A stretch of DNA of 64,000 bases. It comes from Escherichia coli (GTDB lineage: Bacteria > Pseudomonadota > Gammaproteobacteria > Enterobacterales > Enterobacteriaceae). Location of the stretch: assembly GCF_003018255.1 (NCBI RefSeq), contig NZ_CP027440.1; one strand, 5' to 3'. Under the pieces are notes generated by a model that was given only the letters and a program-made list of their open reading frames with translations, made no database searches and was not told the DNA's origin. Both the position numbers and the translations under genes were made by a program. Positions 3,280 to 34,068 of this stretch are shown in pieces (the first letter of the stretch is position 1; each line of letters begins with the position of its first letter).

Positions 3280-3288
3280 TTTGCAACG

Positions 3289-3376
<88 letters not shown>

Positions 3377-5567: not shown

Positions 5568-5984
5568 TTAATCAATAAACAAGGCGGGAGAAATGCCGAA
5601 TCGCGTTGCCAATTTTTTAGCGTGTTCCAGCGTTAATTTCCTCTTCCCGCTCAAAACGCGTGACACCATCGATTTACTGCCAATTTCCGGAAGATCGGAA
5701 AGGGTTAAACCATATTGATCCATAAGGGTACGAATCACAGCTATACCGCCAGGCATGGCTTGCGCCATGGCATTAAATTCAGCAAATTCGGGCGCTGATT
5801 CTTCCCACGCGGTTATTTTGGCACACACCAGATCCAGCAAGGGGTTTTCAGGATCGTTGAGCAGCAGATGATCTACCAGTTCCAGCGCCTGGGTGTATTG
5901 TTCCTCGTTCTGAATACCCGCCAGAAAAGGTGCCACAGCAGTTAACTTTTCTCCTGCTTGCAAGATGTCGGCAATCGCAATCAT
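5568..5984 (-). CDS. higA: Antitoxin HigA (Xre-family HTH)
   Basis: 138-aa ORF; C-terminal HTH region (LTLEHAKKLATRFGISPALF); start overlaps stop of upstream higB remnant (ATGA). Confidence 0.9.
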   Translation of the reverse strand: MIAIADILQAGEKLTAVAPFLAGIQNEEQYTQALELVDHLLLNDPENPLLDLVCAKITAWEESAPEFAEFNAMAQAMPGGIAVIRTLMDQYGLTLSDLPEIGSKSMVSRVLSGKRKLTLEHAKKLATRFGISPALFID

Positions 5985-6060
5985 TTTTTCCCCTTAGTAC
6001 GATGAACGGCGGTAAAGAAATCGTATTCTTTATGCGTCATAACTTCACGTATGTAGCATA
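5981..6060 (-). pseudogene. higB: higB toxin remnant (C-terminal ~26 codons only)
   Basis: Minus-strand translation gives ...CYIREVMTHKEYDFFTAVHRTKGKK* matching the HigB C-terminus as I recall it; upstream sequence diverges into REP-containing DNA. Confidence 0.5.
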
Positions 6061-12916: not shown

Positions 12917-13468
12917 TTAACCCCTTTCGTCTATGGCGGGAGGGGTTTTCTCTACTTTAAACGGATCAATTCCCCTTTTCTGCATCCGCCAGAAACGAAT
13001 GATATTCAGACCATTCATCAGCAGAAAACTCCCCTCAATCATCGTGCCGCCTATCGACCCCGCCCAGAAGTTGTGAATCACCCAGCAACACGTTGAAAAC
13101 CACATTACGCAGCGCATGGTCAGCCCTTTACAGCGGAACAGCGCCCAGGTACTGACAATCGTGCCGATTACCGGCAGTAGTTCGACAGGATGATGGAACT
13201 TCGCGAGGCCAATTCCGCCAGTCAGCACAATAAAAATCGCCATTACCCATAAGCTGCGCGTGCGTAAAGTAATCAGCGTACGAATGGCATTAAGGATGGC
13301 ACTGGCACCGGCGGGATAGGTGCCCAGAAGAAAAAAATGTACGCCAATAACGGCGCTATAGACCGAAAGCTGCTTTTTAAAGCGGCGTTCGTCACGGTTG
13401 AAAAATGTTGTGATACCAATCAGAAAGGCGATGACACCCACGCCCTGGGCCAGCCAATACGCGGTCAT
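12917..13468 (-). CDS. ygjV: Inner membrane protein YgjV
   Basis: 183-aa hydrophobic ORF. Confidence 0.85.
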   Translation of the reverse strand: MTAYWLAQGVGVIAFLIGITTFFNRDERRFKKQLSVYSAVIGVHFFLLGTYPAGASAILNAIRTLITLRTRSLWVMAIFIVLTGGIGLAKFHHPVELLPVIGTIVSTWALFRCKGLTMRCVMWFSTCCWVIHNFWAGSIGGTMIEGSFLLMNGLNIIRFWRMQKRGIDPFKVEKTPPAIDERG

Positions 13469-13550
13469 GATAAATCCTTAGCAGGTCTGGAAAAGCAAAC
13501 GGCGCTTCACATTATGAAACGCCGTTTTTTATTAACAACTCATTTCGACT

Positions 13551-15038
13551 TTATAGCGTTACGCCGCTTTTGAAGATCGCCAGTTCGCGGAAGTCGTTAC
13601 GCTCGTTACAGGTTTGCTTACCGTTGGCAAACTCAACGATGGTATCGATGAATTCTTCCAGCAACTGCGGCATCGCTTTACCGTGGATCAGCTGACCCGC
13701 GTCAAAGTCGATCCAGTGTTTTTTCTTCGCCGCCAGTTCACTGTTGGTGGCGATTTTCACCGTCGGCACAAATCCACCATACGGCGTGCCACGACCAGTA
13801 CTGAACAGCACCATATGGCAGCCCGCACCCGCCAGGGCGCTGGTCGCTACGGCATCGTTACCCGGCGCACTTAACAAGTTCAGCCCCGGCGTTTTCAGAC
13901 GCTCGCCGTAACGCAGCACGTCAACCACGACACTGGAACCCGCTTTCTGGGTACAGCCAAGCGATTTATCTTCCAGCGTGGTGATACCGCCTGCTTTGTT
14001 CCCCGGTGATGGGTTTTCGTAGATCGGCTGGTCATGGGCAATAAAGTACTGCTTGAAGTCGTTGACCATGGTGACCAGTTTTTCAAACGTTGCTTCGTCG
14101 CGGCAATGGTCCATCAGCAACTGCTCTGCGCCAAACATCTCCGGCACTTCGGTCAGTACGGTAGTACCACCGTTAGCAATCACGTAGTCAGAGAAACGCC
14201 CCAGCATCGGGTTAGCAGTAATACCAGAAAGACCGTCAGAACCACCGCACTCCAGACCAAACTTCAGTTCGCTGAGTTTGCCTGGCTCGCGTTTATCGTT
14301 GCGCATCACGTTATACAGCTGATGCAAATGCGCGATCCCGGCTTCGATCTCATCATCCTGCTGTTGGCAGATCATGAAATGAACGCGTTCAGGATCGATA
14401 TCGCCCAGCGTTTCACGGAATGCGGCAACCTGGTTGTTTTCACAGCCCAGACCAATCACCAGCACTGCGCCTGCGTTCGGGTGGCGCACCATGTTTTGCA
14501 GCATGGTGCGGGTATTGATGTGATCGTCGCCCAGCTGTGAGCAGCCGTAGGTGTGGCTGAAGAGGAACACGCCGTCAGTACCTTCGGCGTTGTTGGTCTC
14601 TTTCAGGAAACGATTTTGGATCTGCCGCGCGATGCCGTTGACACAGCCCACGGTTGGCAGGATCCACAGCTCATTACGCACCCCGACATCGCCGTTAGCG
14701 CGACGATAGATCTGCACTTCACGATCTGCCGCTTGCGCAGGCAGATCCTGAAAATCAGGTTGATAGCGATACTGATCCAGATCGCTCAGATTCGTGCGCG
14801 TATTGTGGGCGTGGACGTATTCCCCCGCCGCAATATCCGCCAATGCATAACCAATCGGCAGGCCATATTTGATGACGTTGGCCCCTTTTGCGATATCCGT
14901 TAACGCAAATTTATGTCCACGAGCAACATCCTGGCGCAGCGTAACAGTCTGGTTATCGACACTGACTTCTGTGCCTTCAGCCAAATCTGCTAAAGCGACC
15001 GCGACGTTATCCAGCGCATGGATCTTGATGTATTGCAT
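13551..15038 (-). CDS. uxaA: Altronate dehydratase
   Basis: 495-aa ORF. Confidence 0.95.
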   Translation of the reverse strand: MQYIKIHALDNVAVALADLAEGTEVSVDNQTVTLRQDVARGHKFALTDIAKGANVIKYGLPIGYALADIAAGEYVHAHNTRTNLSDLDQYRYQPDFQDLPAQAADREVQIYRRANGDVGVRNELWILPTVGCVNGIARQIQNRFLKETNNAEGTDGVFLFSHTYGCSQLGDDHINTRTMLQNMVRHPNAGAVLVIGLGCENNQVAAFRETLGDIDPERVHFMICQQQDDEIEAGIAHLHQLYNVMRNDKREPGKLSELKFGLECGGSDGLSGITANPMLGRFSDYVIANGGTTVLTEVPEMFGAEQLLMDHCRDEATFEKLVTMVNDFKQYFIAHDQPIYENPSPGNKAGGITTLEDKSLGCTQKAGSSVVVDVLRYGERLKTPGLNLLSAPGNDAVATSALAGAGCHMVLFSTGRGTPYGGFVPTVKIATNSELAAKKKHWIDFDAGQLIHGKAMPQLLEEFIDTIVEFANGKQTCNERNDFRELAIFKSGVTL

Positions 15039-15052
15039 ATCAACCCCAGACC

Positions 15053-16948
<1,896 letters not shown>

Positions 16949-18247
16949 ATGCGTAAAATTAAAGGGTTACGTTGGTATATGATCGCACTGGTGACGCTCG
17001 GCACCGTGCTTGGTTACCTGACGCGTAACACTGTGGCGGCAGCTGCGCCAACTCTGATGGAAGAGTTAAACATCTCCACCCAACAGTATTCCTATATCAT
17101 CGCAGCCTATTCTGCTGCTTATACGGTCATGCAACCGGTAGCGGGCTATGTACTGGATGTGCTGGGTACGAAAATCGGTTATGCAATGTTTGCTGTGCTG
17201 TGGGCCGTGTTCTGTGGTGCAACCGCGCTGGCAGGTAGCTGGGGCGGCCTGGCTGTTGCTCGTGGTGCGGTCGGTGCCGCGGAAGCCGCGATGATTCCGG
17301 CGGGTCTGAAAGCCAGCTCCGAATGGTTCCCGGCGAAAGAGCGTTCCATCGCGGTAGGTTACTTTAACGTAGGTTCTTCGATTGGTGCGATGATTGCGCC
17401 GCCGCTGGTGGTATGGGCAATCGTGATGCACAGCTGGCAGATGGCATTTATCATCTCCGGTGCGTTGAGCTTTATCTGGGCGATGGCATGGCTGATTTTC
17501 TATAAACATCCGCGCGACCAGAAACATCTGACCGATGAAGAACGCGACTACATTATTAATGGTCAGGAAGCCCAGCACCAGGTTGACACAGCGAAGAAAA
17601 TGTCCGTTGGTCAGATCCTGCGTAACCGTCAGTTCTGGGGTATCGCGCTGCCGCGCTTCCTGGCAGAACCGGCATGGGGTACTTTTAACGCGTGGATCCC
17701 GCTGTTCATGTTTAAAGTTTACGGCTTTAACCTGAAAGAGATCGCGATGTTTGCCTGGATGCCGATGCTGTTTGCTGACCTCGGTTGTATCCTCGGTGGT
17801 TACCTGCCACCACTGTTCCAGCGTTGGTTTGGTGTGAACCTGATCGTTTCCCGTAAGATGGTCGTAACGCTGGGTGCGGTGCTGATGATTGGCCCGGGTA
17901 TGATCGGTCTGTTCACCAACCCGTATGTCGCGATTATGCTGCTGTGTATCGGTGGTTTTGCTCACCAGGCACTGTCTGGCGCACTGATTACGCTCTCGTC
18001 TGACGTGTTCGGTCGTAACGAAGTGGCGACGGCGAACGGTTTAACCGGGATGTCCGCATGGCTGGCAAGTACGCTGTTTGCACTGGTAGTCGGTGCACTG
18101 GCTGACACCATCGGCTTCAGCCCGCTGTTCGCAGTTCTGGCAGTGTTCGACCTGTTAGGTGCGCTGGTTATCTGGACCGTGTTGCAGAACAAACCGGCGA
18201 TTGAGGTGGCGCAGGAATCACATAACGATCCCGCACCGCAACATTAA
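16949..18247 (+). CDS. exuT: Hexuronate transporter (MFS)
   Basis: 432 aa from ATG 16949 (MRKIKGLRWYMIALV...); ORF track has N-terminal extension from 16781. Confidence 0.9.
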   Translation: MRKIKGLRWYMIALVTLGTVLGYLTRNTVAAAAPTLMEELNISTQQYSYIIAAYSAAYTVMQPVAGYVLDVLGTKIGYAMFAVLWAVFCGATALAGSWGGLAVARGAVGAAEAAMIPAGLKASSEWFPAKERSIAVGYFNVGSSIGAMIAPPLVVWAIVMHSWQMAFIISGALSFIWAMAWLIFYKHPRDQKHLTDEERDYIINGQEAQHQVDTAKKMSVGQILRNRQFWGIALPRFLAEPAWGTFNAWIPLFMFKVYGFNLKEIAMFAWMPMLFADLGCILGGYLPPLFQRWFGVNLIVSRKMVVTLGAVLMIGPGMIGLFTNPYVAIMLLCIGGFAHQALSGALITLSSDVFGRNEVATANGLTGMSAWLASTLFALVVGALADTIGFSPLFAVLAVFDLLGALVIWTVLQNKPAIEVAQESHNDPAPQH

Positions 18248-18276
18248 GGCTTCGTGTAAGTTTTAGTTTCCCTTCA

Positions 18277-18303
18277 AAGCCGCCTTCTCAGGCGGCTTTT
18301 TCA
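18277..18303 (+). terminator. Rho-independent terminator after exuT
   Basis: aaagccgccttctcaggcggcttttt hairpin plus T-run. Confidence 0.7.
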
Positions 18304-18376
18304 TCACTGTGAGTAGAGCTAAACTCGCAAAAGTGGTATAACAAATATAGTCTGCCGTATCATGCCTGGAGCGCAT

Positions 18377-19153
18377 ATGGAAATCACTGAACCACGCCGT
18401 TTGTATCAACAACTTGCCGCTGATCTGAAAGAGCGCATCGAACAGGGCGTCTATCTGGTGGGTGATAAACTGCCTGCTGAACGCTTTATTGCCGATGAAA
18501 AGAACGTCAGCCGCACCGTGGTTCGTGAAGCCATCATCATGCTGGAAGTTGAAGGCTATGTCGAAGTGCGTAAAGGTTCAGGTATTCATGTGGTTTCCAA
18601 CCAGCCGCGCCATCAGCAGGCGACTGACAATAATATGGAATTCGCCAATTACGGTCCGTTTGAGTTGCTCCAGGCTCGCCAGCTCATCGAAAGTAATATT
18701 GCCGAGTTCGCGGCAACTCAGGTGACGAAACAGGACATCATGAAACTGATGGCCATCCAGGAGCAGGCGCGCGGCGAACAATGCTTCCGTGATTCCGAGT
18801 GGGATTTGCAGTTCCACATTCAGGTAGCCCTGGCGACGCAGAACTCCGCCCTGGCGGCTATCGTGGAAAAAATGTGGACCCAGCGTAGTCATAACCCGTA
18901 CTGGAAAAAACTGCACGAACACATTGATGCCCGTACCGTCGATAACTGGTGTGATGACCACGATCAAATCCTCAAGGCGCTGATTCGCAAAGATCCTCAT
19001 GCTGCTAAGCTGGCAATGTGGCAGCACCTGGAAAACACCAAGATCATGTTATTTAACGAAACCAGCGACGATTTCGAGTTCAATGCCGACCGCTATCTGT
19101 TCGCCGAAAACCCGGTGGTGCATCTCGATACAGCCACCAGCGGCAGTAAATGA
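18377..19153 (+). CDS. exuR: GntR/FadR-family hexuronate repressor
   Basis: 258 aa from [13 protein letters not shown]. Confidence 0.9.
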
Positions 19154-19163
19154 AATTCCTGTC

Positions 19164-19194
19164 CGACAGGCGCTACAGTGCGCCTGTTTGTCTC
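19164..19194 (+). terminator. Putative terminator after exuR
   Basis: acaggcgctacagtgcgcctgtttg hairpin. Confidence 0.5.
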
Positions 19195-19497
19195 GTCGGT
19201 AAGCGAAAAGTATAAAGTGTCAGCCTGTGTAAATCCTCTCGCCTCCCTCCCCTGCATTCAGCAAAATCAGACTCCACGGACATGTAATTTTGATAACGAA
19301 CAACGTTGACCTTTGTTACAATTAGATTCAATTTGAATTTATGCTTTTGAATGCTTTCTTATCTCACGATTTAACAGGGAATAGTTCAGGCTGTGTTGAT
19401 GTATCAAACCCGCAGAACATACCAAGACAGCAATAACATTGCGGTAGTGCATCATTTAAAACCAGCGTGGCGTTAACCGATTCACCAGGAATAATGA

Positions 19498-20160
19498 ATG
19501 GAACTTTTGACCCAATTGCTGCAAGCCCTGTGGGCGCAGGATTTTGAAACCCTGGCCAATCCGTCGATGATTGGCATGTTGTATTTTGTCTTGTTTGTCA
19601 TTTTGTTCCTTGAAAACGGCTTGCTTCCGGCAGCCTTTTTACCGGGCGACAGCTTACTGGTGTTGGTCGGTGTATTGATTGCGAAAGGCGCGATGGGCTA
19701 TCCGCAAACGATTCTGCTGCTGACCGTTGCCGCCAGCCTCGGCTGCTGGGTCAGCTATATTCAGGGGCGATGGCTGGGCAATACCCGCACCGTACAAAAC
19801 TGGCTATCTCATTTACCCGCGCATTATCATCAACGCGCACACCATCTTTTTCATAAACACGGTTTATCGGCGCTGTTAATTGGTCGCTTTATTGCGTTTG
19901 TCAGAACACTGCTGCCGACGATTGCCGGGTTATCAGGGCTGAATAACGCGCGCTTTCAGTTCTTCAACTGGATGAGTGGTTTGTTGTGGGTATTGATCCT
20001 GACAACTCTGGGTTACATGCTCGGCAAAACGCCGGTATTTTTAAAGTACGAGGACCAGCTGATGTCATGCCTGATGCTGCTCCCGGTGGTGCTGCTGGTG
20101 TTTGGCCTGGCAGGTTCTCTGGTCGTGTTATGGAAAAAGAAATATGGAAATCGGGGGTAA
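19498..20160 (+). CDS. yqjA: DedA-family inner membrane protein
   Basis: 220-aa ORF. Confidence 0.9.
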
Positions 20161-20163
20161 GGG

Positions 20164-20547
20164 ATGCAAATACCTCGCATGTCGCTTCGCCAGCTAGCCT
20201 GGTCCGGCGCTGTTTTACTTCTGGTCGGCACACTGTTGCTGGCCTGGTCCGCGGTTCGCCAGCAAGAGTCTACGCTGGCGATTCGTGCCGTTCATCAAGG
20301 GACAACGATGCCAGACGGTTTTTCAATCTGGCATCACCTTGACGCTCACGGCATTCCTTTCAAAAGTATCACCCCCAAAAACGACACTCTGTTAATTACC
20401 TTTGACTCCAGCGACCAGAGCGCCGCCGCAAAAGCGGTCCTCGACAGAACATTGCCCCATGGCTACATCATTGCGCAGCAGGACAATAACAGTCAGGCTA
20501 TGCAGTGGCTGACCCGGTTGCGGGATAACTCTCATCGCTTCGGATAA
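20164..20547 (+). CDS. mzrA: Modulator of EnvZ/OmpR regulon
   Basis: 127-aa ORF immediately after yqjA. Confidence 0.85.
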
Positions 20548-20693
20548 CTTCCTGTTATCCGAAACAGATCACTCACTTTGGTGATTTCACCGTAACTGTC
20601 TATGATTAATGAGGCGGTGGTTAACACGACCGCTTCGTTGTCTGGACAATCGTTCCTTTGTAATAGGTCCGAATCACAATGGAAGGTTCAAGA

Positions 20694-21062
20694 ATGAAAT
20701 ACCGCATCGCTTTAGCTGTTTCTCTCTTTGCTCTTAGTGCCGGTAGTTATGCCACTACCCTGTGTCAGGAAAAGGAGCAAAATATCCTTAAGGAGATCAG
20801 CTATGCCGAAAAACACCAAAACCAGAATCGTATTGACGGTCTGAATAAAGCCCTGAGTGAAGTCCGGGCCAACTGTTCAGATAGCCAGCTGCGTGCCGAT
20901 CATCAGAAGAAAATCGCAAAGCAGAAAGATGAGGTGGCGGAACGCCAGCAAGATTTAGCCGAGGCGAAGCAAAAAGGCGATGCAGATAAGATTGCCAAAC
21001 GCGAACGGAAACTGGCAGAAGCGCAGGAAGAGCTGAAAAAGCTGGAAGCGCGCGACTACTAA
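20694..21062 (+). CDS. yqjC: DUF1090 periplasmic protein
   Basis: Signal peptide MKYRIALAVSLFALSAGSYA; charged coiled-coil-like C-terminus. Confidence 0.8.
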   Translation: MKYRIALAVSLFALSAGSYATTLCQEKEQNILKEISYAEKHQNQNRIDGLNKALSEVRANCSDSQLRADHQKKIAKQKDEVAERQQDLAEAKQKGDADKIAKRERKLAEAQEELKKLEARDY

Positions 21063-21099
21063 CTCACAATAGTCACTACTTACTCACCTGGAGAAAACT

Positions 21100-21405
21100 A
21101 TGTCGAAAGAACACACTACGGAACATCTGCGTGCTGAGTTGAAATCCCTTTCCGATACGCTGGAAGAGGTGCTTAGCTCATCTGGCGAGAAGTCGAAAGA
21201 AGAGTTGAGTAAGATTCGTAGCAAAGCGGAGCAGGCACTGAAACAGAGCCGTTATCGCCTGGGTGAAACCGGTGATGCCATTGCCAAACAAACCCGTGTC
21301 GCGGCGGCGCGTGCCGATGAGTATGTGCGTGAAAATCCGTGGACGGGCGTGGGCATTGGCGCAGCAATCGGTGTAGTGCTCGGTGTTCTGCTGTCGCGTC
21401 GTTAA
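21100..21405 (+). CDS. yqjD: ElaB/YqjD-family ribosome-associated membrane protein
   Basis: 101-aa ORF with C-terminal transmembrane helix. Confidence 0.85.
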   Translation: MSKEHTTEHLRAELKSLSDTLEEVLSSSGEKSKEELSKIRSKAEQALKQSRYRLGETGDAIAKQTRVAAARADEYVRENPWTGVGIGAAIGVVLGVLLSRR

Positions 21406-21407
21406 TT

Positions 21408-21812
21408 ATGGCGGACACTCATCACGCGCAAGGGCCCGGTAAAAGCGTTCTGGGCATCGGGCAGCGAATTGTTTCCATCATGGTTGAAATGGTGGAGACA
21501 CGTCTGCGGCTGGCGGTGGTGGAGCTGGAAGAGGAAAAAGCGAATCTCTTTCAACTTTTACTGATGCTGGGCCTGACGATGCTTTTCGCTGCATTTGGTC
21601 TTATGAGCCTGATGGTGCTAATTATCTGGGCGGTTGATCCGCAATATCGCCTGAATGCGATGATTGCCACCACCGTGGTGTTGCTGCTACTGGCACTGAT
21701 TGGCGGCATCTGGACGTTACGTAAATCGCGTAAGTCTACGTTGCTGCGCCACACGCGCCATGAGCTGGCAAACGATCGGCAGCTGCTCGAGGAGGAGTCC
21801 CGTGAGCAGTAA
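21408..21812 (+). CDS. yqjE: Inner membrane protein YqjE
   Basis: ATG at 21408 (MADTHHAQGPGKS...), 134 aa. Confidence 0.85.
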   Translation: MADTHHAQGPGKSVLGIGQRIVSIMVEMVETRLRLAVVELEEEKANLFQLLLMLGLTMLFAAFGLMSLMVLIIWAVDPQYRLNAMIATTVVLLLLALIGGIWTLRKSRKSTLLRHTRHELANDRQLLEEESREQ

Positions 21813-22101
21813 AGTCGAACGTGAACGACGTAAGGCGCAACTGCTTAGCCAGATCCAGCAACAACGGCTGGATCTTTCCGCCAGTCGTCGTGAATGGCTG
21901 GAGGCAACAGGCGCTTACGATCGTCGCTGGAATATGCTGTTGAGTCTGCGCTCCTGGGCGCTGGTTGGCAGTAGCGTGATGGCTATCTGGACGATTCGCC
22001 ATCCTAATATGCTGGTCCGCTGGGCCAGACGCGGTTTTGGTGTATGGAGCGCCTGGCGTCTGGTGAAAACAACCCTCAAGCAACAACAGCTTCGCGGTTA
22101 A
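21802..22101 (+). CDS. yqjK: Small protein YqjK
   Basis: GTG start overlapping yqjE end; 99 aa. Confidence 0.7.
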   Translation: MSSKVERERRKAQLLSQIQQQRLDLSASRREWLEATGAYDRRWNMLLSLRSWALVGSSVMAIWTIRHPNMLVRWARRGFGVWSAWRLVKTTLKQQQLRG

Positions 22102-22287
22102 CTTCCTCTCTGGCCGGAGAAATTCCGGCCTTATCCCTCAAATTTTTTGAAAATATTTGACAGTTTTCCTTGCTAACAATCACGCTTCGCCACGTTTATG
22201 ATTCTCTCCATCGACAGCAACGACGCTAATAGCGCGCCCTTGCACAAAAAAACAATCAGCAGCCTGAGCGGCGCAGTGGAGAGTATG

Positions 22288-22680
22288 ATGAAAAAATTAG
22301 AAGATGTTGGTGTACTGGTAGCGCGCATTTTAATGCCGATTCTGTTTATTACCGCAGGCTGGGGAAAAATTACTGGTTACGCGGGTACCCAACAATATAT
22401 GGAAGCGATGGGCGTCCCGGGTTTTATGCTGCCGCTGGTGATTCTGCTTGAGTTTGGTGGTGGTCTGGCAATCCTGTTCGGTTTCCTGACTCGCACCACA
22501 GCCCTGTTTACTGCGGGCTTTACGCTGCTGACGGCATTTTTATTTCACAGCAACTTTGCTGAAGGCGTCAACTCGCTGATGTTCATGAAAAACCTGACAA
22601 TTTCTGGCGGATTCCTGCTGCTGGCAATTACCGGTCCGGGCGCGTATAGCATCGACCGCCTGCTGAATAAAAAGTGGTAA
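22288..22680 (+). CDS. yqjF: DoxX-family membrane protein
   Basis: About 130 aa from MMKKLEDVGV... Confidence 0.8.
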   Translation: MKKLEDVGVLVARILMPILFITAGWGKITGYAGTQQYMEAMGVPGFMLPLVILLEFGGGLAILFGFLTRTTALFTAGFTLLTAFLFHSNFAEGVNSLMFMKNLTISGGFLLLAITGPGAYSIDRLLNKKW

Positions 22681-22701
22681 GCACGCGCTATACTTAACGA
22701 T

Positions 22702-22731
22702 AAAAAACGAGGAGGAAGCTCCTCGTTTTTG
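22702..22731 (+). terminator. Rho-independent terminator after yqjF
   Basis: aaaaaacgaggaggaagctcctcgttttt. Confidence 0.75.
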
Positions 22732-22749
22732 CTATTGGAGGAGAGAAAT

Positions 22750-23735
22750 ATGGGTCAACTGATTGACGGCGTCTGGCATGACACCTGGTACGAACCAAAT
22801 CTACCGGCGGTAAATTTCAACGTTCAGCTTCCGCATTTCGTAACTGGCTCACTGCCGATGGCGCGCCAGGCCCCACTGGCACAGGCGGTTTTATCGCAGA
22901 GAAAGATCGTTATCATCTCTATGTTTCACTCGCCTGCCCGTGGGCGCACCGCACGCTGATCATGCGCAAACTCAAAGGACTGGAACCGTTTATTTCCGTT
23001 TCTGTAGTGAACCCGCTGATGCTGGAAAACGGCTGGACCTTTGATGACAGTTTTCCGGGTGCAACCGGCGATACACTCTATCAACATGAATTTTTGTATC
23101 AGCTTTATCTCCACGCCGATCCACACTACAGCGGACGAGTTACTGTTCCCGTACTGTGGGACAAAAAGAACCACACCATCGTCAGCAACGAATCAGCGGA
23201 AATCATCCGCATGTTCAATACCGCGTTTGATGCGCTGGGCGCGAAAGCGGGTGATTACTACCCACCAGCCCTGCAAACGAAAATTGACGAACTTAACGGC
23301 TGGATTTATGACACCGTTAACAACGGCGTGTATAAAGCTGGTTTTGCCACCAGCCAGCAAGCTTACGACGAGGCGGTGGCGAAAGTGTTTGAATCGCTGG
23401 CGCGACTGGAGCAGATTTTAGGCCAGCATCGTTACCTGACCGGCAATCAGCTAACCGAAGCCGATATTCGCCTGTGGACCACGCTGGTCCGTTTTGATCC
23501 GGTGTATGTGACCCACTTCAAGTGTGATAAGCACCGCATCAGCGATTACCTGAATCTGTACGGTTTTCTGCGCGATATCTACCAGATGCCGGGGATCGCC
23601 GAAACTGTCAATTTCAATCACATCCGTAATCATTACTTCCGCAGCCATAAGACCATCAACCCTACGGGGATTATTTCAATTGGTCCGTGGCAGGATCTCG
23701 ATGAACCGCATGGACGAGATGTTCGCTTCGGTTAA
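22750..23735 (+). pseudogene. yqjG: Glutathionyl-hydroquinone reductase (Xi-class GST) yqjG, frame-disrupted
   Basis: N-terminus MGQLIDGVWHDTWY in frame of ATG 22750; conserved body including CPWAHR is in the -1-shifted frame through to stop at 23735. Confidence 0.75.
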
Positions 23736-23789
23736 AAAAAGGCACCTTACGAGGTGCCTCTGATTATTAGCTAAGTGCGTGTTATTTAT

Positions 23790-23890
23790 GTCGGATGCGG
23801 CGTGAACGTCTTCTCCAACCTACAAAACGTTTATATTCAATATGTTACAATGCCGCGTAGGCCAGATAAGCGTAGCGCATCTGGCGATTT
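23790..23890. repeat. REP/BIME palindromic repeats
   Basis: gtcggatgcggcgtgaacg... and tgccgcgtaggccagataagcgtagcgcatctggcg. Confidence 0.75.
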
Positions 23891-24025
23891 TGCGCTTGTC
23901 ATCAGTCTTAGCGCGCTTTACGGCACTTTATTAATTCCTTGAACGAATATTTACTGCCATTTCATTCACGTCTATTCTTAATTTGCTGCTTTAAAAACAA
24001 GTGATTGAGCAAAATTGAGGCAAAA

Positions 24026-24391
24026 ATGGACTGGTATCTGAAAGTACTAAAAAATTATGTCGGTTTCCGGGGTCGTGCGCGGCGCAAAGAGTACTGGATG
24101 TTTATTCTGGTCAACATCATCTTTACGTTCGTGCTGGGGCTGCTGGATAAAATGTTAGGCTGGCAACGTGCCGGTGGCGAAGGCATCCTGACGACAATCT
24201 ACGGTATTCTGGTGTTTTTACCGTGGTGGGCAGTTCAGTTCCGCCGCCTGCACGACACCGACCGCTCGGCGTGGTGGGCACTGCTGTTCTTAATCCCGTT
24301 TATCGGCTGGCTTATTATCATCGTCTTTAACTGCCAGGCGGGTACGCCAGGCGAAAACCGCTTTGGACCTGATCCAAAACTGGAACCTTAA
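24026..24391 (+). CDS. yhaH: DUF805 inner membrane protein
   Basis: 121 aa from MDWYLKVLKNYVGF. Confidence 0.85.
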   Translation: MDWYLKVLKNYVGFRGRARRKEYWMFILVNIIFTFVLGLLDKMLGWQRAGGEGILTTIYGILVFLPWWAVQFRRLHDTDRSAWWALLFLIPFIGWLIIIVFNCQAGTPGENRFGPDPKLEP

Positions 24392-24403
24392 AACAAATCT
24401 ACT

Positions 24404-24434
24404 CGCCGGATGTCTGACTCATCCGGCTTTTATC
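24404..24434 (+). terminator. Rho-independent terminator after yhaH
   Basis: cgccggatgtctgactcatccggcttttatc. Confidence 0.7.
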
Positions 24435-24633
24435 ATTATGTTGATGAATGAATAATTTACTAATGTTTATTTAAAATATTTCAATGTCGTTATATAAATT
24501 ACCTATAAAAAAATAACCATATATTTATCTTAAATATCAAAACCTTTATAACATCCGAAAAAGAAAGATACGAATAGCATTTACACAATACCCGGAATAG
24601 ACTTTCGTCACTTTTAATTAAAGGGATGTTTTT

Positions 24634-24990
24634 ATGCAGTGGTATTTAGCCGTATTAAAAAATTATGTTGGTTTCTCTGGTCGCGCACGTCGTAAAGAGT
24701 ACTGGATGTTTACTCTGATTAACGCCATCGTCGGCGCTATTATCAATGTCATTCAATTGATTTTAGGTTTAGAGTTTCCATTCCTTTCTCTCATTTACCT
24801 GGCAGCAACAATCATTCCGGTCATTGCTCTGTGCGTTCGTCGTCTGCACGATACTGACCGTTCAGGTGCGTGGGCGCTTCTCTATCTGGTTCCGATCATT
24901 GGCTGGTTAGTTCTGTTTGTATTTGCCTGTTTAGAAGGCAACTCTGGCAGCAATCGTTACGGAAACGATCCGAAGTTTGGTTCAAATTAA
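24634..24990 (+). CDS. yhaI: DUF805 inner membrane protein (paralog of yhaH)
   Basis: 118 aa, MQWYLAVLKNYVGF. Confidence 0.85.
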   Translation: MQWYLAVLKNYVGFSGRARRKEYWMFTLINAIVGAIINVIQLILGLEFPFLSLIYLAATIIPVIALCVRRLHDTDRSGAWALLYLVPIIGWLVLFVFACLEGNSGSNRYGNDPKFGSN

Positions 24991-25000
24991 TTATAGAATT

Positions 25001-25026
25001 GGGGCGATATTTCGCCCCTTTTTATT
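25001..25026. terminator. Hairpin terminator between convergent yhaI and yhaJ
   Basis: ggggcgatatttcgcccctttttatt. Confidence 0.7.
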
Positions 25027-25040
25027 AACAATAACAAATA

Positions 25041-25937
25041 TTATTTTCCGCTAAAAAGTTTGGGAATTTCCCGCAGACACCAGGATTTCGCCTCCCCCAT
25101 ACTGTCACGACGCCAGGCCATAATAATATCGATCTCGCTGGTCGATTCCGGGCTGACGACACGCAACCGCCCTTCCGCGATGTCTTTTTCGACCATCGGA
25201 TACGGCATCGTCGCCACGCCAAGCCCCGCCAGTAACGCCTGACGTTTATCTTCAATCGTGCTCACCGTTAAACGCGGCTGTTTGTCCAGTAGCTGTACGG
25301 TCAATACCGGGCGCTCACGAGCGGTATCCGCCACCGCAATTCCACGATATTTCACGCGCGTCACTTCAGATAACGGTTCCGGCTCCTGATGAATCGGGTG
25401 ATCAGGCGCGGCAACGTAGACGTTCATTAACGTATAGAGCTTGCGCGAGTTGATCTCCGACGAGGAGCGAAAATGCATATCCGGCGCGATAACAATATCC
25501 GCCCGCCCCTGCTCCAGCCGTTCCCATGCCCCCGCCAGCACTTCGGTGATGATTGCCAGTTGGGTATTCGCTTTTGCCGCCAGTTTGTCAATTAACGGGA
25601 AAAAGGCAGGTGTCGGTACCAGCGCTTCGGTCACAATGGTGAGATGCGTTTCCCAACCGCGCGCGAGAGCTTCCGCATCGGTAGTCAGTTTATCTGCGGC
25701 TTCCAGCAAAACGCGTCCTCGCTCCAGCAACATCCTCCCGACATTGGTGAATTTGGTGCGATGGCCCGAGCGGTCAAACAGCACCACATCCAGCTCTTCT
25801 TCCAGTTTTTGCATGGTGTAGCTAAGTGCGGAAGGCACGCGTCCCAGCTCATCCGCCGCCGCCGCAAAACTGCCCCGGCGATCGATCGCATCCATAACCC
25901 GTAGTGCTTCCAGCGTTAATGCCCTTTCTTTGGCCAT
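25041..25937 (-). CDS. yhaJ: LysR-family transcriptional regulator
   Basis: 298-aa ORF with N-terminal HTH. Confidence 0.9.
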   Translation of the reverse strand: MAKERALTLEALRVMDAIDRRGSFAAAADELGRVPSALSYTMQKLEEELDVVLFDRSGHRTKFTNVGRMLLERGRVLLEAADKLTTDAEALARGWETHLTIVTEALVPTPAFFPLIDKLAAKANTQLAIITEVLAGAWERLEQGRADIVIAPDMHFRSSSEINSRKLYTLMNVYVAAPDHPIHQEPEPLSEVTRVKYRGIAVADTARERPVLTVQLLDKQPRLTVSTIEDKRQALLAGLGVATMPYPMVEKDIAEGRLRVVSPESTSEIDIIMAWRRDSMGEAKSWCLREIPKLFSGK

Positions 25938-26041
25938 TTCGTTCTCATTCAGGAAATTTGAACATACCGGGCAGAATATCTGGCTAACAATGTAGCGTCC
26001 AGCCCCTTACCATAAAAGGAAGTAAAGAGAGGTCAAGAATT

Positions 26042-26743
26042 ATGATTACTACCCGAACTGCCAGGCAGTGTGGACAAGCAGACTACGGATGGTTGCAGGC
26101 CCGGTATACTTTTTCCTTTGGACACTACTTCGACCCGAAATTGTTAGGCTATGCCTCCCTGCGCGTGCTTAACCAGGAAGTGCTGGCCCCAGGTGCCGCC
26201 TTTCAGCCGCGAACCTATCCCAAAGTCGATATTTTAAATGTGATTCTGGATGGAGAAGCTGAGTATCGCGACAGTGAAGGCAATCATGTTCAGGCCAGCG
26301 CCGGAGAGACATTGCTGCTCTCTACCCAGCCGGGTATCAGCTATAGCGAACACAATCTCAGCAAAGACAAACCGTTAACGCGAATGCAGCTTTGGCTGGA
26401 TGCCTGCCCGCAGCGAGAGAATCCGCTGATTCAAAAACTGGCGCTTAATATGGGCAAGCAGCAATTAATCGCCTCGCCAGAGGGCACAGTGGGTAGCCTG
26501 CAACTGCGCCAGCAAGTGTGGCTGCACCATATCGTGCTCGACAAAGGCGAAAGTGCGAATTTCCAGTTGCATGGACCACGCGCGTATTTGCAATCGATTC
26601 ACGGGCAATTTCATGCGCTTACGCATCATGAAGAGAAAGCGGCGCTGACCTGCGGTGATGGGGCGTTTATTCGTGACGAGGCTAACATTACGCTGGTTGC
26701 CGATTCCCCACTGCGCGCTTTGCTGATAGATTTGCCTGTCTAG
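26042..26743 (+). CDS. yhaK: Pirin-like bicupin protein
   Basis: 233-aa ORF. Confidence 0.85.
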   Translation: MITTRTARQCGQADYGWLQARYTFSFGHYFDPKLLGYASLRVLNQEVLAPGAAFQPRTYPKVDILNVILDGEAEYRDSEGNHVQASAGETLLLSTQPGISYSEHNLSKDKPLTRMQLWLDACPQRENPLIQKLALNMGKQQLIASPEGTVGSLQLRQQVWLHHIVLDKGESANFQLHGPRAYLQSIHGQFHALTHHEEKAALTCGDGAFIRDEANITLVADSPLRALLIDLPV

Positions 26744-26762
26744 TTGTTTTTACAGGGAGATG

Positions 26763-26930
26763 ATGATGAGTAAAAAATCGGCCAAAAAGCGTCAGCCAGT
26801 GAAGCCCGTGGTGGCGAAAGAACCTGCTCGCACCGCCAAAAATTTTGGCTATGAAGAGATGTTGAGCGAGCTGGAAGCCATCGTCGCGGATGCTGAAACG
26901 CGTTTAGCCGAGGATGAAGCTACCGCGTAA
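26763..26930 (+). CDS. yhaL: Small protein YhaL (55 codons)
   Basis: MMSKKSAKKRQPVKP... ORF below the ORF-track size cutoff; frame verified by codon count. Confidence 0.6.
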   Translation: MMSKKSAKKRQPVKPVVAKEPARTAKNFGYEEMLSELEAIVADAETRLAEDEATA

Positions 26931-26936
26931 AGACAG

Positions 26937-26975
26937 GTGCCGGATGCGGCGTAAACGCCTAATCCGGCACGATAC
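26937..26975. repeat. REP palindromic repeat
   Basis: gtgccggatgcggcgtaaacgcctaatccggcac. Confidence 0.75.
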
Positions 26976-26989
26976 CCAAAACCTGGCGT

Positions 26990-28300
26990 TTATCTGGCCT
27001 TGCTCGCCATAATCTCGATAATCTGCCGATCCGTTTGCTGCATCGAATGGCTTGCTAACGCACACAGGTTGGCAATCGACTGCTCAACATCATGCGCCAC
27101 AATCCCTTCATTACCGGTTACGGCGGTATCATCCAGCGCCATTAACACCGCTTTCCACGCAGCCGAAGCACTGGTCGAAACCTTCATCGCGCAGCTGTTC
27201 GATGCACCATCGCAAATCATGCCACTGACATCGCCGATCATACTGCTGATCGCCATCGAGATGGTTTCATAACGCCCATCCACCAGCCATGCCATCCCGG
27301 CAGCGGCCCCCATTGCTGCGGTCGTTGCGGCACACAGCGCAGACAAACGCGGTAACTGGTTATGGATGTAAATCGCGCTCAAATGCGAAAGCATCAGCGC
27401 ACGCGCCAGCCGTTCATCATCCGCTCCGAAGTGTTCTGCTACCACCACCACGGGCATTGTTGCGGTGATCCCCTGGTTACCCGAGCCGGAGTTACTCATT
27501 GCCGGAAGCGTAGCGCCGCCCATACGCGCATCGGATGCCGCGCTGGTACGAATCACAATGGATGAAGAGAGATCTTTCGCCAGCAAACCGCGCGCGCACT
27601 GTTTTTCCAGCGTCGCACCAATATGCAGCCCCCAGTTACCGCTCAAACCTTCCTGCGATAACGCACAATTTAACTTCGCAGAATCGAGGATAAAGCGGAT
27701 CGCCGCAAACGGGACTTCATTGACGAACTTCAGGATCTCAGCCAGCGTCGTCCTGGAAAGCACCGTCAGCGGCGACTCTTGCTCGCCCTCTGTCACACAC
27801 GCCTGCTGGGTAAACACCACACCATTGTGCGTCTCAATATGCACAATGTTGGTATGCCCGCCGACGATGGTGACACACGCCCACTTCTCACCGTTCCAGA
27901 CTTTGGCGCGTGAGAAGAGGATTTCATCGCAAGGTTCCTGGATCTTAACTGAGACTTTCCCCGCTGCCAGCAGTGCTTTGGCATCGGCAATTGCCTGCGC
28001 AGTTGCGTCTTTCAGCACTTCCAGCCCGGCGTTAGCATTTCCACCTAACGCTCCCAGCGCCGCCGCAATTGGCAGCCCCACCATTCCTGTACCAGGAACG
28101 GTGACACCCAGACCGTTCTTCATCAGATTTGGCGAAACCCAGGCTTCTACACGTTCAACCGGACCTTCCAGTTCAGCCGCAGCAACCGCCGCCGCCAGCG
28201 CCAGTGAAATCGGTTCAGTACACCCCAGCGCCGGTTTTACTTCCTCCTGAACGGCGAGGATGTAACGCTGCCATAACGGATTTAAAGTCGAATCAAACAT
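26990..28300 (-). CDS. cyuA: L-cysteine desulfidase (YhaM/CyuA)
   Basis: 436-aa ORF. Confidence 0.9.
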
Positions 28301-28327
28301 ATTAAAAACCTTAAAATTTCAGGTAAA

Positions 28328-29659
28328 TCAAGAAAATGCCAGGAACGGAGAAACACAAAGCAACAAACCAGTGACGATAATCAGGTACAGAGACATCCCT
28401 TTGTATTTGTGCAATGCCGGTACTTTGTAAACCAGCCACGCCGGGATCAGGCACCCTACCATGCCGAAAATCGGGCTACAGATAGAGGTGAAGCTCAACA
28501 CCGGGGCGTTCAGTACGATGGCGCTCCAGGCCAGCAAAATGGCGAAAATCATGATGCCGCGCTGAACGAGATTTTCGTTAATCTTCTCGGCAGGTATCTT
28601 GCGACGCAGGATGTTCATTACGATCCCTTGCGTTGCTTCGCGAAAGCCTAAATAGACGCCAAAGAATGCAGTCATTACAGCAAAGATATTGAGAATGACG
28701 CTGACCACTTTCACCCACGCTGCGCCATCACCGCTAATAAACTGTGCGGCAATCGCCAGCGCGGAAATATTCTGCTCGTAGGCTTTTACCGCTTCGTCAT
28801 GTCCCATCGCCAGCGTGAACGACACGGCGTAGAAAAAGACGGTGACAAACAAAATGCCAAACGCGATATTCATTGCCCGCAATGCTTTATGCCGCGCCAC
28901 TTCAATTGATTTTTCCCGCGAGCGATAAGAGATCACCATCGGGCTTAACGTCTGGATAAACAGAATCGACGTCAGGGTAAACGGCAGCGTAATAATGGCG
29001 TTTTTCATCAGCAGCCCCAGCGGCGGTAGCGAACCGACGTTATACAGATGCCACATTCCCACCATCGACACGCCCAGCGCCGCGACCACCAGCAGCTTGG
29101 TCAGCACCATGCCGGTCGAAATTTTGAATAACAATTTCTCGCCGCGTGAGGAGATCGCCACCAGAATGCAAATCAGTACCAGACCATAAAAGGGACTGTC
29201 TGACAGCAACCCTTCCGTCACGCCGAAGGTATGCAGGTAGGAAGCACTATCGTTGGTGATGGCGGTGGAATAGACGAACATCCAAATCACCAGCATTACG
29301 AAATAGAGTGCACCTAACAGGATGCCCCAGTTTTTACCTAAATAACCGCTAATGACGCTCGGGTAATCTTTACATTCTGGTGATTCTGCCAGCGTATTAA
29401 TAAACAACCGCTGAAACAGATACATTGCCGGGTAACCAATCACCGATGAGAGCAAAAATACCCACAATCCCATCAAACCGACCTGCACCGGGAGAAAAAC
29501 AATCCCCGCGCCAATCGCCATCCCGATACTCATAATCACCCAGCCGGTGTCAGTACTGTCGAATTTGATCGCTTCTCGCCACTCGCTCTCACTCATTCCA
29601 GCACGACCCGCCGGGGTCGAAGCGTCTGCAATGACGCCTTTATTCGATGCAATTTCCAT
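28328..29659 (-). CDS. cyuP: Serine/cysteine permease (YhaO/CyuP), HAAAP family
   Basis: 443-aa polytopic ORF. Confidence 0.9.
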   Translation of the reverse strand: MEIASNKGVIADASTPAGRAGMSESEWREAIKFDSTDTGWVIMSIGMAIGAGIVFLPVQVGLMGLWVFLLSSVIGYPAMYLFQRLFINTLAESPECKDYPSVISGYLGKNWGILLGALYFVMLVIWMFVYSTAITNDSASYLHTFGVTEGLLSDSPFYGLVLICILVAISSRGEKLLFKISTGMVLTKLLVVAALGVSMVGMWHLYNVGSLPPLGLLMKNAIITLPFTLTSILFIQTLSPMVISYRSREKSIEVARHKALRAMNIAFGILFVTVFFYAVSFTLAMGHDEAVKAYEQNISALAIAAQFISGDGAAWVKVVSVILNIFAVMTAFFGVYLGFREATQGIVMNILRRKIPAEKINENLVQRGIMIFAILLAWSAIVLNAPVLSFTSICSPIFGMVGCLIPAWLVYKVPALHKYKGMSLYLIIVTGLLLCVSPFLAFS

Positions 29660-29883
29660 AATTTCTCGCTCAATATTTTGTAGGGCTTATTATTTTTTTC
29701 CGAGCCGCATCAAGGCGATATGCGGTCTACGTTTTTGCAGGCGAGTTATTAGAATAAAGAAATGATACGCGCGAGGTCAGAGAAAATCTTCACAATCAAG
29801 ACTTTGAAATAACGGAGATGGATAAGAATTTTCTACTAAATTAATCGCAAGAGAATATTCATTCTCTATTTGCGGCAGATCAC

Positions 29884-29910
29884 AAAAAAAAAGGTGCACA
29901 TTTGTGCACC
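29884..29910 (-). terminator. Rho-independent terminator at end of tdc operon
   Basis: Minus-strand ggtgcacaaatgtgcacc hairpin followed by a run of nine T. Confidence 0.75.
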
Positions 29911-29934
29911 CAAGGATGAAAGCTGACAGCAATG

Positions 29935-31299
29935 TCAGCCACAGACCACTTTAATGGCCAGTCCTCCGCGTGACGTTTCGCGGTATTTATCGTTCATATC
30001 TTTGCCGGTTTCATACATCGTCTCGATCACTTTATCGAGTGAAACACGCGGTGCCGAGGTGCGGCGCATCGCCATCCGCGCGGCGTTTACTGCTTTCACG
30101 GCATTAATGGCATTACGTTCAATGCACGGGATTTGTACCTGTCCGGCAACCGGATCGCAGGTCAGCCCAAGGTTATGCTCCATCGCGATTTCCGCCGCAT
30201 TGCATACCTGCGCCGGACTGCCGCCCAGGAGTTCAGTTAACCCTGCCGCCGCCATTGAACAGGCCACGCCAATCTCCCCCTGACAGCCGACCTCCGCACC
30301 AGAGATGGAGGCGTTCATTTTATACAGCGCGCCAATAGCCCCGGCTGCAAGAAAATAGCGGGCAATTGACCGCTCGTTTACCGGACGACGGAACTTATCG
30401 TAATAAGCCAGCACTGCCGGAATAATGCCGCACGCACCGTTAGTCGGTGCCGTTACCACGCGCCCGCCAGCTGCGTTTTCTTCACTAACCGCCAGCGCGT
30501 ACATATTGATCCAGTCGATGACATTCATCGGATCGTTAGAGATGTTATCGCTGGAAACCAGTTGACGACGCAGCGCTACGGCACGACGCGGCACATTGAG
30601 CGGACCAGGCAGCACGCCTTCAGTGTTCATCCCGCGTTCAATACCGTCATGCATCACTTGCCAGATACGGGCAAACCCTGCGTCAATTTCCGCTTTGCTG
30701 CGCAGCGCCAGCTCGTTGTGCATCATCAGGCCAGATATAGACAGGCCGTTGTAATCACACATTTTCAGCAGTTCACCTGCTGAGTGGAAATCGTAAGGTA
30801 CGGGTGTTTCGACATCGTGCGACAGGCCGAAGTGTTCTTCTTCGACAATAAACCCGCCGCCGACAGAGTAATAGGTTTTGCTTAATAGCGCTTCCTGTCC
30901 CTTCCAGGCAGTGATCCGCATTCCGTTCTCATGGCGAGGCAACATTTCGGGATGGAAGATAATGTTCTTTGCTACAGGAAAATCAACAATATGCGCGCCA
31001 GAAGCCACCGGCAACCGCCCGCTGCGCGTCACTAACTCTATAAATGCAGGGATCTCATCAATGACAACATCCTGCGGACTGTTTCCTGCCAGTCCCATGA
31101 TGATGGCGACATCCGTGGCATGGCCTTTGCCCGTCAGTGACAACGACCCGTACAGATCGACCACAATATGGCTCGTCGCGGTTAATAAGCCGCTACTTTC
31201 CAGCCGATCAATAAAACTTTTTCCGGCATTCATTGGCCCCACAGTATGCGAACTGGAGGGACCAATCCCAATTTTGAAAATATCGAATGCACTAATCAT
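29935..31299 (-). CDS. tdcG: L-serine dehydratase (4Fe-4S)
   Basis: 454 aa from [19 protein letters not shown]. Confidence 0.9.
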
Positions 31300-31370
31300 A
31301 TCCACACCCTCGGATTGCCGTTCAGTAAAGTGGAGCGGAACGACCTTGCGACCGTCCCGCTCACGAGGCC

Positions 31371-31760
31371 TTACGCACTACGTACTGCGATGGCTTCAAT
31401 TTCCAACTTCACATCTTTCGGCAAACGCGCGACCTGCACACAGCTCCGGGTCGGGTAGGTCGCCTGATGTTCATCGAAGAACTGCTTATAGACTTCATTG
31501 ATGGTGGCAAAATCATTCAGATCGGTGATGAACACGGTCATCTTGATGATATCGCCCACACTCAGCCCGGCAGCAACCACGATCGCTTTGACGTTTTCGA
31601 GGCTTAAACGCGCCTGATCTTGCACATCAGCCGGGATCTCACCGGTCTGTGGGCAAACCGGAATTTGCCCGGAGGTGAAGACCATGCTGCCTAAATCAAC
31701 GCCCTGAACATAAGGGCCGATTGCGCCTGGGGCACGTTGCGTTTCGATAATCTTTTTCAT
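31371..31760 (-). CDS. tdcF: RidA/YjgF-family enamine/imine deaminase
   Basis: 129 aa from MKKIIETQRAPGAIGPY. Confidence 0.9.
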   Translation of the reverse strand: MKKIIETQRAPGAIGPYVQGVDLGSMVFTSGQIPVCPQTGEIPADVQDQARLSLENVKAIVVAAGLSVGDIIKMTVFITDLNDFATINEVYKQFFDEHQATYPTRSCVQVARLPKDVKLEIEAIAVRSA

Positions 31761-31773
31761 ACATCCTCCGGCG

Positions 31774-34068
31774 TCAGAGCGCCTGGGTAAAGGTACGTGA
31801 AATAACATCCTGTTGCTGTTCACGGGTCAGTGCGTTGAAGCGCACGGCGTAGCCAGAGACACGGATTGTCAGGTTAGGATATTTTTCCGGGTGCTCAATG
31901 GCATCCAGCAGCATTTCCCGATTCATTACGTTGACGTTGAGGTGTTGACCGCCTTCGACATCCGCTTCGTGGTGGAAATACCCATCCAGCAGGCCGACAA
32001 GGTTGGTTTTACGTACTGGATCTTCTTTGCCCAGCGCCGCAGGGACGATGGAGAAGGTGTACGAGATCCCATCTTTGGCGTAGGTGAACGGCAGTTTCGC
32101 CACCGACGTCAATGAGGCCACGGCGCCTTTGCGATCACGACCGTGCATCGGGTTAGCGCCCGGCGCGAACGGTGTTCCGGCGCGGCGACCGTCCGGCGTG
32201 TTCCCGGTTTTCTGACCGTACACCACGTTAGAGGTGATAGTCAGAATCGATTGGGTCGGCACAGCATTGCGATAGGTTGGCAAAGCTTTAATTTTCTTCA
32301 TAAAGCGTTCAACCAGATCGCAGGCAATGCTGTCTACGCGCTCGTCGTTGTTGCCATACTGCGGATATTCGCCGTCAATCTCGAAATCCACCGCCAGGCC
32401 GTTTTCATCACGGATTGGTTTCACACGAGCATATTTGATGGCAGACAGGGAGTCCGTTGCCACCGACAGGCCCGCGATGCCGCACGCCATGGTGCGATAG
32501 ACATCACGATCATGTAGCGCCATCAGCGAAGCTTCGTAGCTGTACTTGTCGTGCATGTAGTGAATGATATTCAGCGCGCTGATGTACTGTACCGCCAGCC
32601 AGTCCATGAAGTGGTCGAGGCTATCCATCACTTTGTCGTAGTCCAGCACGTCATCCATCAACGGAGCCGTTTTCGGGCCAACCTGAATCTTCAGCTTCTC
32701 GTCCATTCCGCCGTTGATTGCGTATAGTAGCGTTTTCGCCAGGTTAGCGCGCGCACCGAAGAACTGCATCTGCTTACCAATCACCATTGGGCTGACGCAA
32801 CAGGCAATCGCGTAATCGTCGCTATTGAAGTCAGTACGCATCAGATCGTCGTTTTCATACTGCAAAGAGGATGTGACGATAGACACCTGCGCGGCATATT
32901 TTTTGAAGGCAATCGGCAAGGCTTCCGACCACAGAATAGTCAGGTTAGGTTCCGGTGCAGGCCCCATAGTGTGCAGGGTGTGTAAATAGCGGAAGGAGTT
33001 TTTGGTCACCAGGGTTCGACCGTCCAGCCCCATCCCGCCGATCACTTCCGTCGCCCAGATCGGGTCGCCGGAGAACAGCGAATCAAATTCCGGCGTACGC
33101 AAGAAGCGCACCATACGGATCTTCATGATGAAGTGGTCGATCAGTTCCTGTGCCTGCTGCTCATTGAGTACGCCTGCTTTAAAGTCGCGCTCAATGTAGA
33201 TATCGAGGAACGATGCCGTGCGCCCCAGCGACATCGCGCCGCCGTTCTGTGATTTCACTGCCGCCAGGTAAGCGAAGTAGAGCCACTGCACCGCTTCCTG
33301 TGCATTCTGCGCCGGGCGAGAGATGTCAAAACCGTATTTCGCCGCCATTTCTTGAATCTGCAACAGCGCACGACGATGTTCCGCCAGCTCCTCACGCAGA
33401 CGGATCGTAGCTTCGAGATCTTCGCCTTTTTCCAGACGGGACTGGAGATCGGCAAACTGCAGTTCGCGTTCACGTACCAGATAACTGATGCCGTAAAGCG
33501 CCACGCGGCGATAGTCACCGATGATACGCCCACGACCATAACCATCTGGTAAACCGGTCAGTACACCAGATTTACGGCAGCGCAGCATATCCGGTGAGTA
33601 AACATCAAATACGCCCTGATTATGGGTTTTACGCAGATCGGTAAAGATGTATTCAAATTCGCTGTCCATTTCACGACCATACGCGTGGAATGAACTTCTA
33701 ATCATATTAATGCCGCCGAACGGATGCAGCGCACGCTTTAATGGCGCATCCGTTTGCAGACCCACTATTTTTTCCAGCGGCTGGTCAATATATCCTGCAT
33801 CATGAGCGGTAATTGTGGTGGCAATATTGGTATCGAAATCCAATGGCGCGTGAGTCGCATTTTCGATACGGATGCCTTCCATCACTTTTTCCCACAATTC
33901 CGTGGTGGCAGGCGTCGCTTCGGCGAGAAAAGATTCATCACCTTCATACGGTGTATAGTTATGTTGAATAAAATCGCGGACATTAATTTCGTTTTTCCAG
34001 TCCGTACCTTTAAAGCCAAGCCATGCGTCGGCGTACAGCTTATCGCTGGTATCAATATCTACCTTCAT
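31774..34068 (-). CDS. tdcE: 2-ketobutyrate/pyruvate formate-lyase (glycyl radical enzyme)
   Basis: 764-aa ORF; glycyl-radical motif RVSGYAV near C-terminus. Confidence 0.95.

Follow-up and report, generated by a model that had tools for sequence, protein, structure and literature searches.

A one-base deletion in codon 15 of yqjG is very probably a recent, strain-private null allele in Escherichia coli

yqjG is a dispensable (non-essential) detoxification gene. The Xi-class GSTs are glutathionyl-hydroquinone reductases in which the sequence CPWA is strictly conserved. [quoted passage not shown] A gene that is read in two overlapping frames also invites comparison with dnaX and the IS3/IS911 transposases, which use programmed -1 frameshifting. 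In E. coli, most slippery heptamers show measurable shifting; those without a stimulator reach approximately 2-10 times a 0.055% background, at most about 0.3-0.5% (PMC4066793).

We found that yqjG is divided between two reading frames in the stretch of E. coli DNA that we analysed (64 kb in length, hereafter the window). The gene occupies positions 22750-23735 on the plus strand, and the frames are split by one absent base between 22793 and 22794. It is 986 nt long, compared to 987 nt for the reference, and comparison with the coding sequence of E. coli JNE23-011 gave 9 stop codons when the gene was read straight through. A single uninterrupted ORF of ~328 codons is absent. Instead there is an ORF of 69 codons and another of 257 codons. 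The gene is found in its usual context (yqjF-yqjG-yhaH). A terminator-like hairpin with a T-run (22712-22731, plus strand) lies after yqjF, just 5' of the yqjG ribosome-binding site, and a second terminator-like hairpin (23740-23759, plus strand) follows the yqjG stop codon. The ribosome-binding site itself (GGAGG, 22737-22741, plus strand) is intact, located 8 nt 5' of the ATG (22750-22752), and is the same in strain 104; both elements were read from the sequence.

The upstream gene, yqjF, has a start-codon ambiguity that is unrelated to the yqjG lesion. Its longest ORF encodes 160 amino acids from the ATG at 22198 (22198-22680), and gene callers recorded the same ORF on a contig from Logan, a collection in which public sequencing runs are assembled directly. 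The RefSeq product of yqjF has 130 amino acids and starts at 22288.

The 5' ORF of yqjG (22750-22959, plus strand) consists of 14 native codons (MGQLIDGVWHDTWY) and 55 out-of-frame codons, and ends at the TGA at 22957-22959. Its 69-amino-acid product is on record exactly, as P0001. The body of the gene is in the -1 frame. This frame has a stop codon at 22779-22781, is open from 22782, reads ...TKSTGGKFQRSAS...SLACPWAHR... (the stretch after the stop is also given as ...TKSTGGKFQRSASAFRNWLTADGAPGPTGTGGFIAEKDRYHLYVSLACPWAHRTLIMRK...), and runs to the TAA at 23733-23735. From 22794 to 23735 it contains native codons 16-328 plus the TAA on the plus strand, with 0 mismatches to the intact allele. 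The original prediction had claimed just such a split, with a start at 22750, a stop at 22957-22959, and the recognisable body with its CPWA motif in the -1 frame between the stop at 22779-22781 and position 23735. The sequence bears out this arrangement and each of these coordinates.

We found that the missing base is the T of codon 15. The gap was placed by aligning yqjG with the genes of strain 104 (L001) and JNE23-011 (L004). In these alignments a T is gone between A22793 and A22794 (plus strand), and this is the sole difference in the gene. The ancestral TAC-GAT-ACC has become TAC-GA-ACC, or c.45delT, p.Asp15GlufsTer56 in standard notation. Alignment to yqjG of other E. coli genomes, a check that the original prediction had proposed, thus gave exactly one missing base and nothing else that differs, and agreed with its reading of the junction tacgaacc (22789-22796) as one base short. 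The codons that it had expected there, tac-gac-acc, were in error: GAT stands at codon 15 in all five intact copies inspected and in all 34 copies from metagenomes (TAC-GAT-ACC), so the lost base is a T. An intact gene in this strain would read TACGATACC across the 22785-22800 region.

Re-insertion of the T restored a 987-nt gene that encodes WP_000531202.1 and is identical to the strain 104 gene at 987 of 987 positions. The one-base loss does not reflect chance. The T that was lost stood alone between two A's, outside any homopolymer, and a scan of the 5' part of the gene (22750-22960) found no run of at least five identical bases. Transcriptional slippage in yqjG was considered and set aside, as this segment has no A or T run of at least five.

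The restored protein is YqjG. Its 328 amino acids matched the E. coli YqjG structures (3R3E, 4G0I/K/L) over residues 1-328 (E = 2e-232), with 3 substitutions relative to the crystallised K-12 protein. Matches to other Xi-class GSTs had E values of 1e-64 to 1e-105. A scan with the NCBIfam library matched no model, not even for intact YqjG, and this library is uninformative on family membership. As judged by homology and synteny, the predicted membership of the yqjG DNA in the Xi class holds.

The frameshift separates the start of the gene from its active site. The CPWA codons (Cys63-Pro-Trp-Ala, 22935-22946, plus strand) are in the body frame, 3' of the frameshift and 5' of any restart codon. 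The first ATG, GTG, or TTG in the body frame is the ATG at 22962, 2 nt past the stop codon of the initial frame, and the longest possible restart ORF (22962-23735, plus strand) encodes Met72-Gly328, a 257-amino-acid fragment that gene callers record as P0006. This fragment is without Cys63 and without the start of the thioredoxin-like domain. Translation from the yqjG ATG would keep to the native frame for 14 residues and end at the TGA after 69. A restart in the native frame would be possible solely at Met72, 3' of the catalytic Cys63. Termination followed by reinitiation at 22962 is conceivable, given that the ATG is so close to the stop, and would yield only the cysteine-less Met72-Gly328 fragment. 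The catalytic cysteine is absent from any predicted translated product, since its codon is not in the frame set by the ATG at 22750 and lies 5' of the restart at 22962. Because no product could carry the active site, we infer that this allele of yqjG is null. Loss of YqjG enzyme activity is the expected consequence of the missing catalytic cysteine and the missing start of the thioredoxin-like domain. Taken as a whole, yqjG in this strain very probably carries a genuine c.45delT in codon 15 that is a recent null allele private to the strain.

We searched for the deletion in other genomes and in metagenomes. A 1,151-nt query around yqjG matched 5,423 of 5,426 complete E. coli genomes, and in every one the match was annotated as yqjG beside yqjF. 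The best matches covered 1,152 bases of the record at 99.9% identity, corresponding to one gap. Full-length yqjG was found in 5,421 of the 5,426 genomes. A 61-nt query across the deletion junction found 5,420 of the genomes, all at 95-99% identity and at best 98.4% (one gap). The deletion allele, for which a 100% match was sought, was in 0 of these 5,420 complete genomes, a RefSeq set to which the source genome itself does not belong (its best match there is 99.5% identical over 22 kb). The junction likewise had 0 matches among species-representative genomes, and the deletion allele was on 0 metagenome contigs. The intact allele, used as a positive control, was found on 34 metagenome contigs, all in frame.

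The exact 69-amino-acid frameshift peptide was found on two contigs in a collection of 15 billion proteins. One is a 4,892,666-bp NCBI contig that is probably the source of the window itself. The other is the Logan contig SRR8931299_135 (21,198 bp), assembled from SRA run SRR8931299. In all that was searched, a single strain or clone accounts for the deletion.

The Logan contig contains the same yqjG deletion. Over 19,210 bp it corresponds to positions 13249-32459 of the window with 0 mismatches and a single gap, and that gap is outside yqjG, in an intergenic poly-T tract at 16852 (T9 in the window; T8 in Logan and in JNE23-011). The nearest complete genomes are on average ~0.5-1% divergent over this region, with the differences unevenly spread. 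Given that level of divergence, mismatch-free identity over 19 kb indicates that the SRR8931299 contig comes from the same strain or clone as the window. In a comparison of all 64 kb with JNE23-011, the complete genome closest to the window, the 62 other full-length coding sequences had 0 gaps and 0 internal stops, and yqjG was the sole exception among 63. Its gap was the only indel within a coding sequence; the others were intergenic, in the T-run at 16852, in an A-run at 29884, and in a REP-like stretch near 26970.

Several of these intergenic differences, and others in the window, can be described further. The poly-T tract at 16852 is in the uxaC-exuT intergenic region, and its T9 probably reflects either a wrong homopolymer length in the source assembly or true slippage within a region of divergent promoters. 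At 29884 (cyuP-tdcG intergenic) the window has A10 and JNE23-011 has A9; the Logan contig sides with the window, and A10 appears to be a real difference from JNE23-011. Intergenic stretches that look like REP elements, at 26940-26990 (yhaL-cyuA) and 3283-3368 (ygjK-fadH), differ in length and content from JNE23-011, and the alignment breaks or shows small gaps there. Divergence from JNE23-011 (L003/L004) is strongly mosaic: the segment from ~16.9 to 25 kb is identical, and fadH, garD, and garK are 94.6%, 95.9%, and 96.4% identical, respectively. This pattern suggests a patchwork produced by recombination. The window also contains a C-terminal remnant of the toxin gene higB (...CYIREVMTHKEYDFFTAVHRTKGKK; 5981-6058, minus strand) beside an intact higA (5568-5984). 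JNE23-011 is annotated with the same higB remnant and higA. The higB lesion is older, being common to at least JNE23-011, and leaves higA as an orphan antitoxin.

A genuine mutation in the sequenced DNA is much the most likely reading of the yqjG deletion. The original prediction had left the choice between a pseudogene and a homopolymer-type assembly error, and of these our results favour the pseudogene (null allele). Such an error is unsupported because the Logan assembly has the same deletion, the lost T is a singleton, and no other gene in the 64 kb is frameshifted. More generally, the true yqjG could be intact, with the T dropped by mistake from the deposited sequence. Among errors in long-read assemblies, single-base indels are the most frequent, and the source assembly is not error-free, as the window and the read-based contig disagree at one homopolymer in 19 kb (T9/T8 at 16852). 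The absence of the source genome from the 5,426 RefSeq complete genomes could also mean that it was excluded for quality. However, the Logan contig that shares the deletion is otherwise mismatch-free for 19.2 kb, the deletion site is not a homopolymer, and no other coding sequence in the window has a frameshift. Frameshifts of the error type do occur in yqjG on other public contigs (L008 and L009, described below), and they sit in GG or TTTT runs and are accompanied by 4-8 other gaps per 2-3 kb, in contrast to the deletion described here. The agreement between the two assemblies rules out an artefact of the assembler or of polishing; if the same reads underlie both, it leaves room for systematic error in the reads or for a subclonal variant in the sequenced culture. 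We consider it improbable that the deposited sequence is wrong at this position. A different question is where a real deletion arose. Apart from this base, positions 16949-24990 of the window, which span 13 other genes, match JNE23-011 without a difference, and yhaJ, the gene that follows, has a one-base difference. The rest of yqjG has zero substitutions, and the lesion was in no other genome or metagenome that we examined, from which we conclude that the deletion is very recent. Both a natural origin and one during laboratory passage are conceivable. If it came from passage, or from a subpopulation of the culture, it would be real in the sequenced DNA and yet not an allele of the natural strain. 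The lack of any secondary decay in yqjG, the absence of the allele from every other genome and metagenome searched, and its single strain-level source all fit that account. However, none of these results separates a recent natural mutation from a laboratory one, and the deletion is the consensus in both assemblies, which suggests, without showing, that it was the majority state in the sequenced DNA. We regard an origin in laboratory passage or in a subpopulation of the culture as a minority possibility.

A real deletion might still permit some expression if ribosomes changed frame. The shifted frame contains a formal X_XXY_YYZ slippery heptamer, A_AAT_TTC (22812-22818, plus strand), the only one found in our scan. 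It is 18 nt 3' of the deletion, and ribosomes that slip by -1 at this point return to the native frame. Slippage at 22812-22818 would join the two frames and give a 328-amino-acid product in which residues 15-22 are changed from DTKSTGGK to EPNLPAVN, and a functional or near-native enzyme could still be made. The position of the heptamer and the measurable shiftiness of most heptamers in E. coli (PMC4066793) are consistent with such recoding. However, A_AAT_TTC is the native AAA-TTT (Lys22-Phe23) codon pair of yqjG seen from the shifted frame and appears to be incidental; we estimated the chance of such a motif in ~60 codons to be roughly 0.2. We found no stimulatory structure 3' of the heptamer when the fold of 22819-22900 (82 nt) was compared to shuffled sequences. 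The folding energy was -23.2 kcal/mol, the mean of the shuffles was -24.4 (z = +0.40), and 125 of 200 shuffles folded at least as well. Heptamers that lack a stimulator are too weak, at ~2-10 times the 0.055% background (PMC4066793). Furthermore, the two-frame layout is kept nowhere: it was in 0 of 5,420 genomes, and the 34 copies from metagenomes are all in frame. Programmed frameshifting of yqjG is very unlikely. We give almost no weight to slippage that maintains a functional or near-native enzyme, and functional recoding of any kind is highly improbable. A leaky allele, in which a spontaneous -1 slip at A_AAU_UUC leaves the cell a very small amount of full-length YqjG whose N-terminal extension has eight changed residues, is scarcely more credible. 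If it were true, it would be a translational 'correction' of an indel that might explain tolerance of the lesion and provide a possible route to a low-expression variant.

We found other lesions of yqjG in public assemblies. Several other assemblies have a 69-amino-acid 5' peptide that ends at the same out-of-frame TGA, together with the 257-amino-acid 3' ORF (P0002-P0005). P0003, one of these, was recorded on 5 contigs, of which one is a 5.02-Mb NCBI contig. The contig from ERR2203445 (L006) has a clean nonsense mutation in yqjG, TGG to TGA at W9. The contigs from SRR22784516 (L008) and SRR22784467 (L009) are noisy, with yqjG deletions within GG or TTTT runs, and these deletions look like read errors. 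None of the Logan contigs that carry the 257-amino-acid 3' ORF (L006-L010) has the GATACC-to-GAACC deletion; they have other lesions or are noisy.

Our preferred reading, a genuine deletion that makes a null allele, is of little import outside annotation. The annotation of this strain should call yqjG a frameshifted pseudogene or null allele and should not 'correct' it. On this reading the quinone-response neighbourhood yqjF-yqjG-yhaJ is otherwise intact, and the strain is a natural knockout of yqjG that could be of minor use for studies of quinone and hydroquinone detoxification. The comparison also indicates that a read-based public assembly such as Logan can settle the question of pseudogene or assembly error without raw reads.

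We compared this locus with the systems that it most resembles. It is like dnaX and the IS3/IS911 transposases in having overlapping frames and a formal X_XXY_YYZ heptamer. Unlike those cases of programmed -1 frameshifting, yqjG has no stimulatory hairpin or pseudoknot, its layout is not conserved, and its heptamer is not of the efficient A_AAG type. The other sporadic lesions of yqjG have the same consequence as the one described here, but they are independent events at other positions (including 1-nt deletions), and several are on other haplotypes. The closest relative is the intact E. coli gene for YqjG (WP_000531202.1). The locus is the same and orthologous, and differs here in being one T short in codon 15, with a predicted null product. 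The yqjG of this strain is a known gene with an ordinary frameshift, and as a unitary pseudogene or null allele it belongs to the commonest kind.
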